A stretch of DNA of 12,734 nucleotides from a virus (taxonomy: Duplodnaviria > Heunggongvirae > Uroviricota > Caudoviricetes). Numbering within the stretch: the stretch's first letter is position 1; each line of letters starts with the position of its first letter. The stretch lies in the IMG/VR virus record IMGVR_UViG_2548876862_000016. The stretch is one strand, 5' to 3'. Below the pieces are notes generated by a model. That model did no database searches. It had not been told where the DNA came from and saw only the letters and a program-made list of their open reading frames with translations. Made by a program: the position numbers and the translations under genes. Positions 2,733 through 12,734 of this stretch are shown here, one piece after another.

Positions 2733-3905
2733 ATGGCTCAGGATTACCACCACGGGGTGCGCGTTGTTGAAGTCAACGAAGGCACCCGATCTATTACCAC
2801 GGTGAGCACCGCCATCGTGGGTATGGTCTGCACGGGCGATGATGCCGATGCAAAAATGTTTCCTCTTAATAAACCCGTGCTGATCACTGATGTGCTGACT
2901 GCCAGCGGTAAAGCGGGTGAGTCAGGTACTCTGGCCCGTTCGCTGGATGCCATCGCTGACCAGGCAAAACCCGTGACCATTGTTGTGCGTGTGCCGCAGG
3001 GTGAAACGGAAGACGAAACCACGACCAATATCATCGGCGCAGTGACCGCTGAAGGTAAAAAAACAGGTATGAAAGCCCTGTTATCTGCCCAGTCACAGCT
3101 CGGCGTTAAACCGCGCATTCTCGGCGTGCCAGGCCACGACACCAAGGCGGTAGCTACTGAGTTGCTGAGCGTGGCGCAAAGCCTGCGTGGATTTGCTTAC
3201 CTGTCAGCGTATGGCTGCAAGACAGTGCAGGAGGCGATCACTTACCGCGAAAACTTCAGCCAGCGCGAAGGGATGCTGATCTGGCCTGACTTTACTGGCT
3301 GGGACACGGTGCTGAATGCCGAAGCAACGGCATATGCCACCGCCCGTGCGCTTGGTCTGCGCGCCAAAATTGACGAGCAGACCGGATGGCACAAAAGCCT
3401 GTCCAACGTGGGCGTGAACGGTGTCACCGGAATTTCTGCAGATGTGTTCTGGGATCTGCAGGACCCGGCAACCGATGCAGGTCTGCTGAACCAGAACGAC
3501 GTCACCACGCTTGTGCGTAAAGACGGTTTCCGCTTCTGGGGTTCCCGCTGCCTGAGTGATGACCCGCTCTTTGCCTTCGAAAACTACACCCGCACGGCGC
3601 AGGTGCTGATGGACACGATGGCAGAAGCACACATGTGGGCGGTGGATAAACCGCTTAACCCGTCGCTGGCCCGCGACATTATCGAAGGTATCCGCGCCAA
3701 AATGCGCAGCCTGGTCAGTCAGGGCTATCTCATTGGTGGTGATTGCTGGCTGGATGAGTCGGTGAACGACAAAGACACGCTGAAAGCCGGAAAACTCACC
3801 ATCGACTACGACTACACGCCAGTGCCGCCACTTGAAAACCTGATGCTGCGTCAGCGCATCACCGATCAGTACCTGGTGAATTTCGCCAGCCAGGTCAGCG
3901 CGTAA
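2733..3905 (+). CDS. FI: Contractile tail sheath protein (P2 gpFI)
   Basis: 390 aa, P2 FI-like in size and sequence; AGGAGG 9 nt upstream of the ATG; first gene of the FI-FII-E-T-U-D block. Confidence 0.95.
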
Positions 3906-3914
3906 GGGGACAAC

Positions 3915-4430
3915 ATGGCTTTACCACGCAAATTAAAACACCTGAACCTGTTTAACGACGGGAACAACTGGCAGGGGATCGTTGAGTCGCTGACGCTGCC
4001 GAAATTTACCCGCAAATATGAGAAGTATCGCGGCGGCGGAATGCCGGGTGCGGTGGATGTGGATCTGGGGCTTGATGACAGTGCGCTGGACACAGAATTT
4101 TCCATTGGTGGTACTGAATTGCTGCTGTTTAAACAGATGGGTAAAGCCACGGTGGATGGCATCCAGCTGCGCTTTACCGGCTCTATTCAGCGTGACGATA
4201 CCGGGGAAGTGCAGGCCGTGGAGCTTGTCGTGCGTGGACGTCACAAAGAAGTGGATTCCGGCGAGTGGAAGACGGGCGAAAGCAACACCACCAAAGTGAC
4301 CAGTACCAACAGCTACGCGAAGCTGACCATCAATGGTGAGGTGCTCTATGAAGTGGACCTTATCAACATGGTGGAAATTGTGGACGGTGTGGACCTGATG
4401 GAAGCGCACCGCAACGCCCTCGGCCTCTGA
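3915..4430 (+). CDS. FII: Tail tube protein (P2 gpFII)
   Basis: 171 aa, P2 FII-like; starts 9 nt after the FI stop, with a GGGGA ribosome-binding site. Confidence 0.95.
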   Translation: MALPRKLKHLNLFNDGNNWQGIVESLTLPKFTRKYEKYRGGGMPGAVDVDLGLDDSALDTEFSIGGTELLLFKQMGKATVDGIQLRFTGSIQRDDTGEVQAVELVVRGRHKEVDSGEWKTGESNTTKVTSTNSYAKLTINGEVLYEVDLINMVEIVDGVDLMEAHRNALGL

Positions 4431-4440
4431 TATATCTGAA

Positions 4441-4459
4441 CGGCGCGGGATACCGCGCC
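4441..4459 (+). other. GC-rich hairpin in the FII-E intergenic region (7-bp stem, GATA loop), no U-tract
   Basis: GGCGCGG-GATA-CCGCGCC at 4442-4459; followed by AGAACCC rather than a T-run, so not a classic intrinsic terminator. Confidence 0.4.
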
Positions 4460-4484
4460 AGAACCCAATTGACAGGACAGCAAA

Positions 4485-4787
4485 ATGAGCGATAAGCAGA
4501 CTGAAAAGACCATTCAACTGGATACCCCCATCAAGCGCGGTAAAACAGAAATCACCGAAATTGTGCTGCGTAAACCGCAGTCCGGTGCGCTGCGCGGTAC
4601 ACGCCTGCAGGCCATTATGGATATGGATGTAAACGCGATGATGACCGTGATCCCCCGCATCTCCAGTCCGGCACTGACTGCACAGGAAATTGCAGAGATG
4701 GACCCGGCAGATCTCACTGCCATGTCGGTTGAGGTTGTCACTTTTTTGTTGAAGAAGTCGGTGCTTGCCGGTTTACCGACAGCCTGA
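4485..4787 (+). CDS. E: Tail assembly chaperone (P2 gpE)
   Basis: 100-aa ORF in the P2 position between FII and T; contains the slippery heptamer near its 3' end. Confidence 0.85.
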   Translation: MSDKQTEKTIQLDTPIKRGKTEITEIVLRKPQSGALRGTRLQAIMDMDVNAMMTVIPRISSPALTAQEIAEMDPADLTAMSVEVVTFLLKKSVLAGLPTA

Positions 4788-4921
4788 CGGTTGACGATCT
4801 GGTGGCAGATATCGCCACCATTTTTCACTGGCCGCCATCCGTTACTGACGTTATGCCGCTGACCGAAGTGCTGGAATGGCGGTATAAAGCGATTCAGAGA
4901 AGCGGGGCCAACGATGAGTGA
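4485..4921 (+). CDS. E+E': Tail assembly chaperone frameshift product (P2 gpE+E'), made by a -1 ribosomal frameshift at 4742-4748
   Basis: T_TTT_TTG lies in the E frame (codons ACT TTT TTG). After a -1 slip the reading frame stays open from 4748 to a TGA at 4919-4921, giving about 145 aa (P2 E+E' is 142 aa) and overlapping the T start codon at 4914. Confidence 0.75.
4742..4748 (+). promoter_or_regulatory. Programmed -1 frameshift slippery heptamer TTTTTTG
   Basis: X_XXY_YYZ heptamer in the correct phase, at the conserved position for the tail-chaperone frameshift. Confidence 0.75.
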
Positions 4922-7900
4922 TAACAGCCTGCGTCTGCAGGTCATTCTTAATGCGGTTGACAAGCTCACCCGCCCATTTCGATCTGCGCAGGCCAGTTCA
5001 AGAGAACTGGCTGCTGCTGTCAAAAAATCCCGCGATGCAATAAAGCAGCTTGATCAGGCCGGGAGCAGTCTGGACAGCTTCCGAAAGCTGCAGGCAGAAA
5101 ATCAGAAATTAGGCGACAGGCTGAACTATGCCCGCCAGCGTGCAAATTTGCTCAGTCAGGAACTGGGAGCGATGGGGCCGCCTTCGCAACGTCAGGTTGT
5201 TGCTCTGGGCCGTCAACGGCTGGCTGTTCAGCGCCTGGAAGAACGCCAGAAAAAGCTGCAGCAGCAGACGGCGCTTGTGCGTGCTGAACTGTACCGGGCG
5301 GGAATTTCTGCGAAAGACGATGCGGGAGCAACTGCCCGTTTAGCCCGTGAAACATCACGTTATAACCAGGAACTTTCGAAACAGGAGGCGCGGCTGAAGC
5401 GACTGGGGGAAGCTCAGCGCAGGATGAATGCAGCGCGTGCCAGTTATGCCCGTTCGCTGGAGGTGCGTGATCGTATTGCAGGTGCCGGAGCCACCACCAC
5501 GGCTGCAGGGCTGGCAATGGGTGCGCCAGTGATGGCGGCAGTAAAAAGCTATACCAGCATGGAAGATGCCATGAAAGGTGTGGCAAAGCAGGTCAATGGT
5601 CTGCGTGACGATAATGGCAACCGCACTGCACGTTTTTATGAAATGCAGGATGCCATCAAGGCTGCCAGCGAACAGTTGCCGATGGAAAACGGTGCGGTGG
5701 ACTTCGCTGCACTGGTTGAAGGTGGTGCGCGCATGAACGTCGCAAACCCTGACGACAGCTGGGAAGATCAGAAACGTGACCTGCTGGCCTTCGCCAGTAC
5801 GGCAGCAAAGGCGGCAACAGCCTTTGAGCTGCCAGCGGATGAACTGTCAGAAAGTCTGGGGAAAATCGCCCAGCTCTACAAAATCCCCACCCGCAATATT
5901 GAACAGCTCGGTGATGCGCTGAACTATCTGGATGATAACGCCATGTCGAAAGGGGCAGACATCATTGATGTGATGCAACGTCTGGGCGGTGTGGCTGACC
6001 GTCTGGATTATCGTAAAGCGGCGGCGCTGGGTTCCACCTTCCTGACACTGGGCGCTGCGCCAGAGGTTGCAGCCAGTGCAGCAAACGCGATGGTGCGTGA
6101 ATTGTCCATTGCCACCATGCAAAGCAAGAGTTTCTTTGAAGGGATGAATCTGCTGAAACTCAATCCTGAAGTGATTGAAAAGCAGATGACGAAGGATGCG
6201 ATGGGAACCATCCAGCGCGTGCTGGAGAAGGTAAACGCGCTGCCGCAGGACAAGCGCCTGTCTGCCATGACTATGTTGTTTGGTAAAGAGTTTGGCGATG
6301 ACGCGGCGAAACTGGCAAACAACCTGCCGGAACTGCAGCGTCAGTTAAAACTGACAGCGGGCAATGATGCGCTCGGCTCCATGCAGAAAGAATCCGACAT
6401 TAACAAGGATTCACTTTCTGCGCAGTGGTTGCTGGTCAAAACCGGAGCGCAGAACACCTTCAGCAGCCTGGGCGAAACGCTGCGCCAGCCGCTGATGGAT
6501 ATTCTGTACACGGTGAAAAGCGTCACGGGGGCGTTGCGTCGCTGGGTGGAAGCTAACCCGGAACTGACAGGCACACTGATGAAAGCATCGGCTGTTGTGG
6601 CTGCGGTTACCGTCGGCCTCGGCACCTTAGCGGTGGCGCTGGCTGCAGTGCTGGGGCCGCTGGCAGTGATCCGTCTGGGATTCTCTGTGTTGGGTATCAA
6701 AACGTTATCTTCCGTTACGGCAGCAGTAACTCGAACCAGCAGCGCGTTGTCCTGGCTGGCTGGCGCACCACTGGCACTGCTGCGACGCGGGCTTGCTTCA
6801 TCGGGCAACGCCGCAGGTTTACTTACTGCGCCGTTGTCGTCTTTGCGCCGCACGGCATCACTGACGGGAAATGTCCTGAAAACTGTAGCAGGTGCGCCGG
6901 TTGCACTTTTGCGGTCTGGATTATCCGGTTTACGTGCTGTTGCTGTGATGTTTATGAATCCTCTGGCGGTACTGCGCGGTGGACTGGCTGCCGCAGGCAC
7001 GGTGCTGCGAGTACTGGCATCTGGTCCACTGGCGATGCTGCGCGTTGCCCTGTATGCCATATCTGGTCTGTTAGGTGCTCTGCTCAGTCCAATAGGTCTT
7101 GTGGTTACTGCACTGGCGGGCGTGGCGCTGGTTGTCTGGAAATACTGGCAACCCATCACCGCATTTCTCGGTGGCGTGGTGGAAGGATTCAAAGCGGCGG
7201 CAGGTCCCATCAGTGCAGCGTTCGAACCGCTTAAGCCCGTGTTCCAGTGGATTGGCGACAAAGTGCAGGCGCTGTGGGGCTGGTTTACTGAACTGCTGAC
7301 GCCCGTTAAGTCGACCTCTGCCGAACTGCAGAGCGCAGCGGCAATGGGGCGACGATTCGGGGAGGCACTGACAGAAGGGCTGAATATGGTCATGCATCCG
7401 CTGGACTCCCTGAAATCCGGCGTTTCCTGGTTGCTGGAGAAACTCGGCATTGTCAGTAAAGAGGCTGCAAAGGCGAAACTGCCGGAAAGCGTGACGCGTC
7501 AGCAACCTGCGACGGTGAATGCAGACGGTAAAGTGATGATGTCATCGGGTGATTTTCCGTCATGGGGATATGGCTTTGCGGGGATGTATGACAGCGGCGG
7601 CTATATCCCGCGCGGGCAGTTTGGCATCGTCGGTGAAAACGGGCCGGAAATTGTTAACGGCCCGGCAAACGTGACCAGCCGGAGAAATACAGCTGCACTG
7701 GCTGCCGTTGTCGCCGGAATGATGGGTGTTGCTGCCGCGCCAGCAGAGCTTCCACCGTTGCATCCTTTGGCGCTTCCCGCAAAAGGCGGTGAAGCGATGG
7801 TGAGTCGTGCAGCTACTGTGCCGCCCATTTACCGGATTGAAGCACCGACGCAGATCATCATCCAGACACAGCCAGGACAAAGTGCGCAGGATATTGCGCG

Positions 7901-7991
7901 GGAGGTGGCCCGCCAGCTTGATGAACGTGAACGCAGGCTGAAGGCAAAAGCCAGGAGTAACTACAGCGATCAGGGGGGATACGACGCATGA
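4914..7991 (+). CDS. T: Tail tape measure protein (P2 gpT)
   Basis: 1025 aa; coiled-coil-like N-terminal third, central hydrophobic repeat region, Gly-rich C-terminal part; lies between E/E' and U. Confidence 0.95.
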   Translation: MSDNSLRLQVILNAVDKLTRPFRSAQASSRELAAAVKKSRDAIKQLDQAGSSLDSFRKLQAENQKLGDRLNYARQRANLLSQELGAMGPPSQRQVVALGRQRLAVQRLEERQKKLQQQTALVRAELYRAGISAKDDAGATARLARETSRYNQELSKQEARLKRLGEAQRRMNAARASYARSLEVRDRIAGAGATTTAAGLAMGAPVMAAVKSYTSMEDAMKGVAKQVNGLRDDNGNRTARFYEMQDAIKAASEQLPMENGAVDFAALVEGGARMNVANPDDSWEDQKRDLLAFASTAAKAATAFELPADELSESLGKIAQLYKIPTRNIEQLGDALNYLDDNAMSKGADIIDVMQRLGGVADRLDYRKAAALGSTFLTLGAAPEVAASAANAMVRELSIATMQSKSFFEGMNLLKLNPEVIEKQMTKDAMGTIQRVLEKVNALPQDKRLSAMTMLFGKEFGDDAAKLANNLPELQRQLKLTAGNDALGSMQKESDINKDSLSAQWLLVKTGAQNTFSSLGETLRQPLMDILYTVKSVTGALRRWVEANPELTGTLMKASAVVAAVTVGLGTLAVALAAVLGPLAVIRLGFSVLGIKTLSSVTAAVTRTSSALSWLAGAPLALLRRGLASSGNAAGLLTAPLSSLRRTASLTGNVLKTVAGAPVALLRSGLSGLRAVAVMFMNPLAVLRGGLAAAGTVLRVLASGPLAMLRVALYAISGLLGALLSPIGLVVTALAGVALVVWKYWQPITAFLGGVVEGFKAAAGPISAAFEPLKPVFQWIGDKVQALWGWFTELLTPVKSTSAELQSAAAMGRRFGEALTEGLNMVMHPLDSLKSGVSWLLEKLGIVSKEAAKAKLPESVTRQQPATVNADGKVMMSSGDFPSWGYGFAGMYDSGGYIPRGQFGIVGENGPEIVNGPANVTSRRNTAALAAVVAGMMGVAAAPAELPPLHPLALPAKGGEAMVSRAATVPPIYRIEAPTQIIIQTQPGQSAQDIAREVARQLDERERRLKAKARSNYSDQGGYDA
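6765..7055 (+). repeat. Five degenerate tandem repeats (63-66 nt period) inside T, encoding a hydrophobic 21-22 aa unit (x-P-L-A/S-x-L-R-x-G-L)
   Basis: Repeat units start near 6765, 6828, 6894, 6957 and 7023: APLALLRRGL / APLSSLRRTASL / APVALLRSGL / NPLAVLRGGL / GPLAMLRVAL. Confidence 0.7.
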
Positions 7992-8473
7992 TGATGGTGC
8001 TGGGATTGTACGTGTTTATGCTGCGCACCGTGCCGTATCAGGAGCTGCAGTATCAACGCAGCTGGCGACATGCGGCAAACAGCCGGGTAAACCGACGTCC
8101 GTCCACGCAGTTTCTGGGACCGGACAACGACATGCTGACGCTTTCCGGTGTTCTTATGCCGGAGATAACAGGTGGCAGGCTGTCGTTGCTGGCACTGGAG
8201 CAGATGGCAGAACAGGGGAAAGCATGGCCCCTGATTGAAGGCAGTGGCACGATTTATGGCATGTATGTGATTGAGGGACTGAATCAGACTAAAACGGAGT
8301 TTTTCCGCGACGGTATGCCGCGCCGGATTGAGTTCACCCTGTCGCTCAAACGGGTGGATGAATCCCTGTCCGATATATTCGGTGATCTCAGTGCGCAACT
8401 GAATAATCTGCAGGACACAGCAACGTCTGCCTTAAGCGATATCAGTAAAACGGTGGGAGGGCTGCTGTCATGA
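7988..8473 (+). CDS. U: Tail protein (P2 gpU)
   Basis: 161 aa (P2 U is about 159 aa); ATGA overlap with the T stop; three consecutive ATG codons at 7988-7996. Confidence 0.9.
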   Translation: MMMVLGLYVFMLRTVPYQELQYQRSWRHAANSRVNRRPSTQFLGPDNDMLTLSGVLMPEITGGRLSLLALEQMAEQGKAWPLIEGSGTIYGMYVIEGLNQTKTEFFRDGMPRRIEFTLSLKRVDESLSDIFGDLSAQLNNLQDTATSALSDISKTVGGLLS

Positions 8474-9570
8474 ATTTCAGCTCTGAACTGCTTAACAAAG
8501 GCAACAAAACTCCCGCATTCAGCATCAGTATTGAGGGCAGGGATATCACCACTGTGCTGGATAACCGCCTGATGAGTTTGACGCTGACGGACAATCGGGG
8601 CTTTGAAGCGGACCAGCTTGATCTGGAGCTGGACGACGCCGACGGAAAAATCGTGCTGCCGCGCCGTGGTGCGGTTATTACGCTGGCGCTGGGCTGGAAG
8701 GGGCAGCCGCTTTTCCCGAAAGGGGCATTCACGGTGGACGAGATTGAACACACTGGCGCACCGGACCGCCTGACTATCCGGGCGCGAAGTGCTGATTTTC
8801 GTGAAACGCTGAATACCCGCCGTGAAAAGTCGTGGCACAAGACCACCGTCGGGGAAGTGGTGAAGGAAATAGCTGTGCGGCACAAACTGAAGATGGCATT
8901 GGGTAAAGACCTGTCAGATAAACCCGTGGAACATATAGACCAGACCAATGAGAGTGACGGCAGTTTTCTGATGCGGCTGGCGCGCCAGTACGGTGCTATT
9001 GCGTCGGTGAAAAATGGCAATCTGTTATTCATCCGGCAGGGACAGGGTAAAAGCGCCAGCGGTAAACCACTACCGGTTATCACTATCACACGTAAGGACG
9101 GCGACAGTCACCGCTTTACCCTGGCAGATCGCGGAGCCTACACGGGCGTAATTGCCAGCTGGTTGCATACCCGCGAACCCGCGAAGAATGAAAGCACCAC
9201 GGTGAAGCGTAAGCGCAGGACTAAGAAGCAGAAGAAAGAGCCGGAAGCGAAGCAGGGCGATTACCTGGTGGGTACAGATGAAAACGTGCTGGTACTTAAT
9301 CGCACCTATGCCAACCGGAGCAACGCCGAACGGGCGGCGAAAATGCAGTGGGAACGCCTGCAACGCGGCGTTGCGTCATTCTCGCTACAACTGGCAGAAG
9401 GTCGGGCAGATCTCTACACGGAAATGCCAGTGAAAGTCAGTGGCTTTAAACAGCCGATAGATGATGCGGAATGGACCATTACGACTCTGACGCATACCGT
9501 CAGCCCCGATAACGGTTTTACAACCAGTCTGGAGCTTGAAGTGAGGATTGATGATTTCGAAATGGAATGA
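8470..9570 (+). CDS. D: Tail protein / late gene D product (P2 gpD)
   Basis: 366 aa with a basic KRKRRTKKQKKEPEAK stretch; ATGA overlap with the U stop; last gene of the tail block before ogr. Confidence 0.95.
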   Translation: MNFSSELLNKGNKTPAFSISIEGRDITTVLDNRLMSLTLTDNRGFEADQLDLELDDADGKIVLPRRGAVITLALGWKGQPLFPKGAFTVDEIEHTGAPDRLTIRARSADFRETLNTRREKSWHKTTVGEVVKEIAVRHKLKMALGKDLSDKPVEHIDQTNESDGSFLMRLARQYGAIASVKNGNLLFIRQGQGKSASGKPLPVITITRKDGDSHRFTLADRGAYTGVIASWLHTREPAKNESTTVKRKRRTKKQKKEPEAKQGDYLVGTDENVLVLNRTYANRSNAERAAKMQWERLQRGVASFSLQLAEGRADLYTEMPVKVSGFKQPIDDAEWTITTLTHTVSPDNGFTTSLELEVRIDDFEME

Positions 9571-9626: not shown

Positions 9627-9660
9627 TGTGAATTTAGCAAAAATGGGGAGAACTCGAAAA

Positions 9661-9879
9661 ATGATGATTTGCCCACTGTGTGGAAGTGCCGCCCATACTC
9701 GCAGCAGTTTTCAGGTATCTTCATTGACCAAAGAGCGTTACAACCAGTGCCAGAACATTAACTGCAGCCATACTTTTGTTACCCATGAAACTTTTGTTCG
9801 TTCGATTGCAACGCCAAAAGAGTCAAATCCGGTTCAGCCGCATCCAATGAAATCAGGACAGGTGGCGCTCTCTCTTTGA
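9661..9879 (+). CDS. ogr: Late transcription activator Ogr (zinc-finger, P2 Ogr / 186 B / P4 delta family)
   Basis: CPLCGSAAHTRSS...YNQCQNINCSHTF gives the Cys4 zinc-finger pattern of Ogr. The ORF track starts at GTG 9628, but ATG 9661, 10 nt after GGGGAG, gives the canonical ~72-aa protein beginning MMICPLC. Confidence 0.85.
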   Translation: MMICPLCGSAAHTRSSFQVSSLTKERYNQCQNINCSHTFVTHETFVRSIATPKESNPVQPHPMKSGQVALSL

Positions 9880-10114: not shown

Positions 10115-11800
10115 TTATCCTAATCTTGGCCATACCATGACGATGATTGTCCCTGCCAGCGTCAGCAGGACGTTGGCGATTGCATAGGTGCCCGCATAGC
10201 CCAGCGCCGGGATGTTACTGCGAGCTGTATCACTGATGATCTCCATTGCCGGCGCGCAGGTACGTGCGCCCATCATTGCGCCGAACAACAGCGCGCGGTT
10301 CATTCGCAATACATAAGCACCGAACAAGAAACAGATAACCACGGGCACCAGACTGACAATCAATCCGGCAATCAACATCTGACCGCCAATCGCGCCCAGG
10401 CCGTTATTAATACCGCTACCGGCGCTCAGACCAACGCCTGCCATAAACACCATCAAGCCGAACTCTTTCACCATGCTTAATGCACCCTGCGGAATGTAAC
10501 CGAAGGTCGGGTGGTTAGCACGCATAAAGCCCAGCATAATTCCGGCGAATAACAACCCGGCAGCGTTCCCCATGCCGAAACTGAATGTGCTGAACTGGAA
10601 GGTGATCATCCCGATCATCAGCCCAATAACAAAGAAGGCGCAGAATGCCAGCAGGTCAGTGACCTGGCTGTGAATCGAGATAAAGCCGATGCGATCGGCG
10701 ATGGTTTTTACGCGGCGGGCATCGCCGCTGACTTGTAAAACGTCACCTTTGTTAAGCACGACGTTGTCATCTATCGGCATCTCAATCTGGCTACGAATGA
10801 CGCGGTTAAGGAAGCAACCGTGATCGGTCAACTTCAGTTGTGCGAGACGTTTACCTACAGCGTTATGGTTTTTAACGACCACTTCTTCAGTGACGATACG
10901 CATGTCGAGAAGGTCACGATCGAAAACTTCTTTACCGTTACGGAAGCTGGGATCGAGTCGGGCATGGGCGTCGGGATAGCCTACCAACGCTATTTCATCG
11001 CCCATTTGTAGCACGGCATCACCGTCTGGATTTGCCAGAATCCCGTTACGTCGAATACGTTCAATGTAGCAGCCGGTTTGTCGATAAATACCCAGTTCAC
11101 GCAGATTTTTGCCGTCGGTCCAGGCCACCAGTTCCGGGCCGACGCGATAGGCGCGGATCACCGGTAAATAAACCTTACGGTTGGCATCAGTGTCCAGGCC
11201 ACGTTCGCGGGCGATTTGCTGGGCGCTGGTCTGTAAGTCCTGATGCTGCAATTTCGGCAAGTAACGCGCACCAACAATCAAACTCACCAGACCGATTAAA
11301 TAGGTTAAGGCATACCCGAGGCTCAGATTATCCAGTGCCAGTGAGAGCTGCCTGCTTTCCATGCCGGAATGACGCAGTGTATCGCCAGCACCGACCAGAA
11401 CCGGTGTCGACGTCATAGAACCTGCTAACATACCGGCCGTCAGGCCAATATCCCAGCCAAACAGCTTACCTAACCCTAAGGCGATCACCAGCGCACTGCC
11501 AACCATCACCAGTGCTAACATTAGGTAATTTTTCCCATCGCGAAAAAAAATGGAAAAAAAGTTCGGTCCGGCTTCGACCCCGACGCAGAAAATAAACAGC
11601 ATAAAGCCAAGATTAAGCGCATCGGTGTTAATGCTGAAATGTTGTTGGCCTAATAACAGCGATACGACTAAAACGCCAATGGAATTACCCAGTTGGATCG
11701 AACCAAGTCGTAACTTTCCGAGACATAGCCCAAGCGCGAGGACCACAAATAATAACAGAATGTAATTCCCATTTAACAATTCGGCGACGTTTATATTCAC
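10115..11800 (-). CDS. ybjL: Putative transport protein YbjL (AAE / YidE-YbjL family with two central RCK/TrkA-C domains)
   Basis: 561 aa, [36 protein letters not shown]...; matches E. coli YbjL in length and sequence as I remember it; GTG start at 11800. Confidence 0.93.
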
Positions 11801-12069: not shown

Positions 12070-12447
12070 GTGAAACATAAACAACGTTGGGCGGGGGCAA
12101 TCTGCTGTTTTGTCCTCTTCATTGTGGTGTGCCTTTTTCTGGCGACGCACATGAAAGGCGCTTTTCGGGCTGCCGGGCATCCTGAAATCGGCTTGCTATT
12201 TTTCATTCTTCCTGGAGCAGTCGCCAGCTTCTTTTCACAGCGTAGAGAAGTCCTGAAACCTCTGTTTGGCGCAATGCTGGCGGCACCCTGTTCGATGCTC
12301 ATTATGCGGCTGTTTTTTTCACCGACGCGCTCATTCTGGCAAGAGCTGGCATGGTTACTAAGCGCGGTGTTCTGGTGTGCGCTGGGGGCACTGTGTTTCT
12401 TATTTATCAGTAGTTTGTTTAAACCACAGCACAGAAAAAATCAGTAA
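12070..12447 (+). CDS. ybjM: Inner membrane protein YbjM
   Basis: 125 aa, MKHKQRWAGAICCFVLFIVVCLF...; GTG start with AGGAGG 6 nt upstream; divergent from ybjL as in E. coli. Confidence 0.9.
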   Translation: MKHKQRWAGAICCFVLFIVVCLFLATHMKGAFRAAGHPEIGLLFFILPGAVASFFSQRREVLKPLFGAMLAAPCSMLIMRLFFSPTRSFWQELAWLLSAVFWCALGALCFLFISSLFKPQHRKNQ

Positions 12448-12476: not shown

Positions 12477-12734
12477 TCAGGCGTCCAGATTTTCTTTCAC
12501 CCATGCAGCAAAATCGGTATAGCCGCCGATATGTTGCTGATCGACAAAAATCTGCGGCACGGTTTCTACGGGTTTACCTGCCTTTTGTTGTAGATCTTCT
12601 TTAGTGATCCCTTCCGCACGAATATCTACATACTGATACTGAAAATCATCGCGTTCATTGCTCAATTTCTCAGCCAGATCTTTTGCACGCACACAGTAAG
12701 GGCAACCCGAACGACCAAAAATAACGGTTTGCAT
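12477..12734 (-). CDS. grxA: Glutaredoxin 1
   Basis: 85 aa, MQTVIFGRSGCPYCVRAKDLAEKL... with the CPYC active site; matches E. coli GrxA. The start codon sits on the last three bases of the window, so the promoter is off-window. Confidence 0.95.
   Translation of the reverse strand: MQTVIFGRSGCPYCVRAKDLAEKLSNERDDFQYQYVDIRAEGITKEDLQQKAGKPVETVPQIFVDQQHIGGYTDFAAWVKENLDA

Follow-up and report, generated by a model that had tools for sequence, protein, structure and literature searches.

Tail operon and E/E' locus of a P2-like prophage

The window (the whole stretch of DNA analysed, 12,734 nt) carries the tail operon FI-FII-E/E'-T-U-D-ogr of a P2-like E. coli prophage (Peduoviridae, Felsduovirus/Elveevirus-type). 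The E/E' locus sits between the tube gene (3915-4430) and the tape-measure gene (4914-7991). The genes and features of the operon, together with the host genes on its right, are as follows.

2733-3905: sheath gene
3915-4430, + strand: FII-like major tail tube gene (PF04985 Phage_tube, 8.8e-60; TIGR01611 tail_tube, 1.8e-49)
4485-4787, + strand: gene E, tail assembly chaperone, 100 aa (PF10109, phrog_103, sequence read)
4742-4748, + strand: slippery heptamer T_TTT_TTG, in phase with E
4748-4921, + strand: E', the -1-frame extension, 57 codons and a TGA (PF06528, phrog_1756, wobble variability)
4485-4921, + strand: predicted E+E' fusion, 145 aa, predicted junction ...VVTF-L-VEEVG... (BLASTP alignment to P2 gpE+E')
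4914-4921, + strand: 8-nt overlap ATGAGTGA, holding the T start codon and the E' stop codon
4914-7991, + strand: gene T, tail tape measure protein, 1025 aa (TIGR01760 tape_meas, 1.3e-92; PF10145, 2e-18)
7988-8473: gpU
8470-9570: gpD
9628-9879: Ogr (as ORF)
10115-11800, - strand: host YbjL-type Asp-Al_Ex/TrkA-C transporter
12070-12447: host ybjM
12477-12734, - strand: host glutaredoxin

Gene E starts with the ATG at 4485, has a Shine-Dalgarno sequence AGGA at 4474-4477 (7 nt 5' of the ATG) and stops at the TGA 4785-4787, as found both by reading the sequence and by script. The zero-frame codons at the heptamer are ACT 4740, TTT 4743 and TTG 4746, which is the X_XXY_YYZ phase, with TTT 4743 as the P-site codon and TTG 4746 as the A-site codon. 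The sequence read and this codon phase bear out the initial annotation, which had placed an in-phase T_TTT_TTG within E at 4742-4748. It had also described a -1 frame open for 57 codons up to the TGA at 4919-4921, and this frame is stop-free on reading: it follows a TGA at 4730-4732, is open from 4733, and from 4748 to 4918 it contains exactly 57 sense codons. Between 4733 and 4801 there is no ATG, GTG or TTG in the -1 frame, the first start codon being the GTG at 4802.

We also asked how often such an arrangement would occur by chance in the plus-strand genes of the window. In-phase X_XXY_YYZ heptamers number just 7 in their 2558 codons, and the -1 frame stays open for at least 57 codons at only 9.6% of codon positions. 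As a rough product, a heptamer within ~15 codons of the end of a particular ORF combined with such an open frame would be expected at about 0.4%. It is the homology and the conservation described below that exclude a chance origin of the E/E' arrangement.

The 54-nt spacer between FII and E holds a stable GC-rich hairpin without a T-tract (GGCGCGG-GATA-CCGCGCC, 4442-4459). It may serve in the processing or stability of the mRNA, or as a partial attenuator between the highly expressed sheath/tube genes and E-T-U-D; in the Mannheimia relative, a terminator is annotated at this same place. At the right prophage end, some 230 nt without coding sequence, presumably attR, separate ogr from the host genes. 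The prophage is a very common one in E. coli. Of 5426 complete genomes of the species, 999 contain the region, and in 973 of them the match extends over at least 80% of the 601-nt query, mostly at an identity of at least 95%.

On the left, positions 1-2590 of the window hold an invertible tail-fibre segment and its invertase. Perfect 55-nt inverted repeats are present at 1-55, where the edge of the window truncates the left arm, and at 1942-1996. They flank genes for tail-fibre assembly and alternative C-termini of the tail fibre, encoded in opposite orientations:

1-432 and 437-880, + strand: tail-fibre / assembly ORFs
852-1457 and 1454-1996, - strand: tail-fibre / assembly ORFs
2018-2590: Cin/Gin-type serine invertase (Resolvase, 2.3e-53), adjoining the invertible segment

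This is a host-range switch of the Mu G or P1 C kind, a reading that draws also on the Fels-2 annotation.

Homology and conservation of the two reading frames

Both parts of the locus matched known tail protein families. Against Pfam, E gave PF10109 Phage_TAC_7 (1e-18; 67.5 bits vs a gathering cut-off of 25), while the -1 extension gave PF06528 Phage_P2_GpE over fusion residues 107-143 (2.9e-18; 65.5 vs 23 bits). The corresponding PHROG matches were phrog_103, tail protein (4.4e-44), and phrog_1756 (1.8e-22). When the conceptual fusion was compared with P2 gpE+E' (142 aa) by BLASTP, a gapless alignment was obtained with 49% identity (E 4e-51), which runs through the junction, where TFLVEEVGA is aligned with GFLVAELGA. 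By tblastn, the two-piece E/E' match was present in 425 phage records; a search for a relative with a solved structure found none.

The P2 genes for gpE/gpE+E' (NC_001895, P2p25/P2p26) share with this locus the Pfam families of both halves, T_TTT_TTG at the same aligned residue, the gene order FII-E/E'-T and an E' that overlaps T by 8 nt. In the P2 record itself, E+E' is entered as a joined CDS, the point of the shift is marked 'site of -1 translational frameshift', and T overlaps by 8 nt. P2 differs, however, in that the proteins are just 49% identical, E has 91 aa instead of 100 and the fusion 142 instead of 145, E' ends with TAA instead of TGA, and the tape measure has 815 aa by its coordinates, against 1025 here. 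Much closer are Fels-2 (STM2699 / STM2697.1) and Escherichia phage 500465-1, with 86% and 99.8% DNA identity, respectively, over 4400-5000, both with an identical heptamer and an identical ATGAGTGA junction. From these two Peduoviridae of the Felsduovirus/Elveevirus type there is essentially no difference, and the window represents the same prophage lineage. The Fels-2 annotation states that the protein 'forms functional gpE+E' if translational slippage occurs', and in the PSP3 and KL3 records the E+E' frameshift is annotated as in P2.

Conservation of the slip site was assessed in the 45 related loci that could be analysed, 8 from phages and 37 from bacterial genomes, at DNA identities of 74-99%. 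An in-phase heptamer at the homologous place, together with an open -1 frame, was present in 45/45, in the form T_TTT_TTG in 38 and T_TTT_TTA in 7; one of the 38 has a second in-phase heptamer. TTTTTTG is found also in distant Peduoviridae, namely P2, PSP3, ENT90, Burkholderia KL3, Ralstonia RS-AB1 and an Acidovorax phage. Variants at the homologous site are TTTTTTC in Vibrio MAR, TTTTTTT in a Zymomonas element and G_GGA_AAG, the heptamer of lambda, in a Mannheimia phage, and in Klebsiella phage ST16-OXA48phi5.4 the sole in-phase heptamer seen was C_CCT_TTC. This comparison of distant relatives leaves out phiCTX.

Per-column variability was then calculated over 43 distinct sequences. Upstream of the slip site it peaks at the wobble position of the E frame (0.263 vs 0.081 and 0.046), at 4788-4913 it peaks at the wobble position of the -1 frame (0.185 vs 0.062 and 0.023), and in the 36-nt dual-coding stretch it is damped. 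Beyond the slip site, coding passes from the frame of E to the -1 frame, and the E' frame is under coding selection from the slip site on, with no start codon of its own upstream of GTG 4802. Wherever Thr is encoded just before the T-run (40 sequences), the codon is ACT, and in the remaining three it is CTT or ATT, so that its third base is T in 43/43; the Phe codon of the heptamer is TTT in 43/43. Neighbouring four-fold degenerate codons (4725, 4728, 4737), on the other hand, make use of all four bases. Since ACT (wherever Thr is encoded) and TTT are invariant next to codons that are free to vary, we conclude that selection acts on the nucleotides of the T-run itself.

In E. coli RefSeq genomes and in phages Cartapus, 4LV2017, SEN8 and RE2010, E' is annotated as an independent gene, which would require no frameshift. 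PGAP and many phage records list it separately, as a 39-aa CDS with an internal GTG or ATG start named 'GpE family phage tail protein', and a GTG is present at 4802 in the -1 frame. However, no Shine-Dalgarno sequence precedes 4802 (ACGGTTGACGATCTG), and the 18 -1-frame codons before it (VEEVGACRFTDSLTVDDL) align with P2 gpE+E' (VAELGAVTFPKNLSVDDL) right up to the heptamer, with 10 of 18 residues identical. An independent gene is at odds also with the phrog_1756 match, which spans extension residues 3-57, with the nucleotide-level selection on the heptamer, and with P2 genetics, which gave a frameshift fusion (cited in PMC3091744; P2 record). We regard an independent E' gene as extremely improbable; the entries that list E' as a CDS by itself most likely arise because gene callers cannot join frames. 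Because RefSeq/PGAP and phage records list E' separately, the 145-aa E+E' is absent from many proteomes. This annotation gap is the practical point of the present analysis, whose importance otherwise goes little beyond correct annotation: the P2-type E/E' frameshift is an already described, textbook case of recoding, and this copy is near-identical to those of sequenced phages.

Slippage mechanism and search for stimulators

The initial annotation had proposed a tail-chaperone frameshift of the P2 E/E' type, and this proposal is borne out by the homology of both halves, the gapless collinearity with P2 across the junction, the position between tube and tape-measure genes, the conserved in-phase heptamer and the switch of the coding phase to the -1 frame. 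The records agree, with Fels-2 gpE+E' said to form by slippage and the P2 frameshift site lying at the homologous position. Comparative sequence evidence thus supports the locus as a canonical P2-type E/E' programmed -1 frameshift. We put at roughly 93% the probability that a ribosomal -1 slip at T_TTT_TTG in this P2-like prophage tail operon yields both E and E+E'.

Such a slip would proceed as follows. When ribosomes translating E come to T_TTT_TTG, the P site would be occupied by tRNA-Phe, paired to UUU, and the A site by tRNA-Leu, paired to UUG. A minority of the ribosomes would slip back by one base, both tRNAs re-pairing (UUU-UUG to UUU-UUU, a tandem -1 slip), and would then read GUU GAA... 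for 57 codons to give the 145-aa E+E', while the majority would stop 12 codons further on and release the 100-aa E. If the analogy to lambda gpG/gpGT holds, the tape-measure protein T may be coated by E and by the E part of E+E', with the E' domain recruiting the tube protein, and the slip rate would fix the ratio of E to E+E' needed for tail assembly. Anatomy, homology, conservation and the coding-phase switch were read at this locus itself; for the production of the fusion, its frequency and the chaperone mechanism we infer from experiments on P2 and lambda.

The P2 frameshift frequency was reportedly put at about 10% by Christie et al. in 2002, which compares with a G:GT ratio of about 30:1 in lambda. 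The lambda gpG/gpGT system is known from Levin (1993) and from Xu, Hendrix and Duda (2004, 2013, 2014). In P2, the shift at TTTTTTG gives a 91-aa E and a 142-aa E+E' (PMC3091744), and P2 genetics demonstrated the frameshift fusion, made as a set fraction and essential for tail assembly (cited in PMC3091744; P2 record). In lambda, the tape measure is bound by G and by the G portion of GT, the major tail protein is recruited through the T domain, and the slip rate fixes the 30:1 ratio of G to GT (PMC5009743). The logic is the same as here, since two chaperones arise from one start through a -1 slip near the end of the gene; likewise, the lambda genes lie between the major tail/tube and tape-measure genes, and the frameshifted ORF overlaps the tape-measure start by 8 nt. 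Lambda differs in its heptamer (G_GGA_AAG) and in being a siphovirus, in contrast to the contractile tail encoded here. No BLASTP alignment of E to lambda gpG was obtained at E <= 100, therefore the locus resembles lambda G/GT in its working and is not a member of the same sequence family.

The same -1 product could, in principle, be made by transcriptional slippage, with RNA polymerase inserting one U too many at T6 and no slip by the ribosome. The run is a homopolymer and one extra U would put E' in frame; moreover, this route serves an analogous ruler-gene system, Shigella spa13/spa32 (PMC5009743). Against it, the heptamer is in phase with E in 45/45 relatives, which transcriptional slippage would not require. 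Efficient slippage of bacterial RNA polymerase takes runs of about 9 or more, and T6 is shorter. Related sites also obey X_XXY_YYZ with mixed bases, as in the Mannheimia G_GGA_AAG, which fits a tandem tRNA slip, and the last base of the heptamer is free to be G or A in close relatives. We consider transcriptional slippage very improbable here. Within the family, ribosomal slippage is favoured over it because some relatives have non-homopolymeric slip sites.

A search for stimulators of the ribosomal slip revealed no convincing stimulatory RNA structure around the heptamer. The following candidate was considered.

4757-4788, + strand: hairpin 8 nt 3' of the heptamer, MFE -13.5 kcal/mol, weak and possibly irrelevant

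Its z-score was -1.66, with 12 of 200 shuffles as good. As a stimulator, the downstream hairpin (models 4757-4780 and 4757-4788) was rejected: covariation was not significant (52 of 500 shuffles), compensatory changes amounted to one, in two related phages, and a counterpart of the 4757-4788 hairpin was absent in P2, ENT90, KL3, RS-AB1 and Acidovorax. The high percentage of pairing in this hairpin is due to the conservation of the dual-coding stretch. In P2 and Burkholderia relatives no downstream hairpin was reported, and none is needed in P2 (PMC3091744). RNAalifold over 4736-4945 also proposed a long-range pairing of 4771-4785 (the 3' end of E) with 4905-4919 (the T ribosome-binding site and ATG); we treat it as unsupported because it is rich in G-U pairs and its covariation term is only -1.27 kcal/mol.

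On the upstream side, a Shine-Dalgarno-like GAGGT lies at 4731-4735, 6 nt 5' of the heptamer; the stimulatory spacing of such a sequence in dnaX is 10-14 nt upstream. Motifs resembling AAGGTG/GAGGTG occur near the slip site also in P2, PSP3, Ralstonia and Acidovorax and are missing in ENT90, KL3 and Zymomonas. GAGGT was rejected as a stimulator, as the motif arises from conserved [E/K]-V codons. The wobble base of its GAG is conserved in 42/43 sequences, which is not above other Glu codons, so there is no sign of selection on the motif.

Two further hairpins near the slip site are of a terminator-like appearance. In P2 itself, GCTGGCCGG-TAAGGT-GGTCGGT forms a hairpin directly 5' of the slippery T-run (658-685 of the P2 segment compared) and, as it adjoins the T6 run, it scores as terminator-like; no equivalent was found in the window. 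The second was detected by a consensus scan of the window.

4800-4828, + strand: terminator-like hairpin in the E'-only segment, 7-bp stem (hairpin 4800-4820) followed by TTTTT

This element reads TGGTGGC-AGATATC-GCCACCA and then TTTTT. The stem, two paired wobble positions included, is conserved in 28 close relatives. At the homologous place it was not found in P2, PSP3, ENT90 or RS-AB1; the candidate is lineage-specific and was rejected.

Overlap of E' with the tape-measure gene

The initial annotation had the frameshifted frame ending on top of the T start codon. The two ORFs do overlap, sharing 8 nt; the E' stop, however, is not on the start codon itself, since the ATG occupies 4914-4916 and the TGA (4919-4921) starts 2 nt after it. 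The same 8-nt overlap is present in 39 of the 45 relatives. P2, PSP3 and ENT90 share it (ATGAGTAA), and the T/H overlap of lambda has the same 8-nt geometry (ATGGCTGA). In Ralstonia RS-AB1 only 4 nt are shared, and there is no overlap in Burkholderia KL3 (a 2-nt gap) or in the Acidovorax, Vibrio MAR and Mannheimia phages.

This conserved ATGnnTGA layout suggests that translation of T may be coupled to termination of E'. Ribosomes finishing E' would stop inside ATGAGTGA, and some may re-initiate on T. From the stop of E to the start of T there are 127 nt, which are traversed solely by frameshifted ribosomes. In the Shigella type III secretion system, the recoded C-terminal extension of spa13 likewise overlaps a downstream length-ruler gene, spa32, and strongly alters its expression (PMC5009743), although there the recoding is by transcriptional slippage and the proteins are unrelated.

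T may, however, be translated independently from its own ribosome-binding site, in which case the 8-nt overlap would reflect compact packing of phage genes and no regulation. T has a weak Shine-Dalgarno-like GGGG of its own (4905-4908, 5 nt 5' of the ATG), the overlap is shortened or missing in the phages named above, and overlaps of the ATGA type are common in this operon (T/U at 7988-7991, U/D at 8470-8473). Independent translation is harder to reconcile with the exact 8-nt layout, which 39/45 relatives share with P2, PSP3 and ENT90 and which lambda T/H has independently, with the 127 nt that only frameshifted ribosomes cross, and with the strong effect on spa32 in Shigella. To us, independent translation of T is an evenly balanced proposition, and the chances of a measurable effect of coupling on T are likewise about even. 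Since the 8-nt overlap is absent in several other lineages, we go no further than to call the coupling of T translation to E' termination plausible, as a putative and lineage-specific feature.

A stronger version, which we think unlikely, is that the frameshift itself may set the output of T, with slipped ribosomes ending inside ATGAGTGA, re-initiating on T and melting the 4800-4820 hairpin on their way. If this were true, synthesis of T (and of U and D) would be stoichiometrically tied to that of E+E', and the 8-nt geometry shared with lambda T/H would point to a design rule that holds generally for long-tail operons and has gone unrecognised.

At the other end of T, an in-phase G_GGG_GGA is found at 7973-7979, 3 codons before the gene ends. 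The -1 frame there is that of the U gene, with 164 open codons, and a slip at this site would fuse T to U. This heptamer is probably a coincidence of the T/U ATGA overlap.
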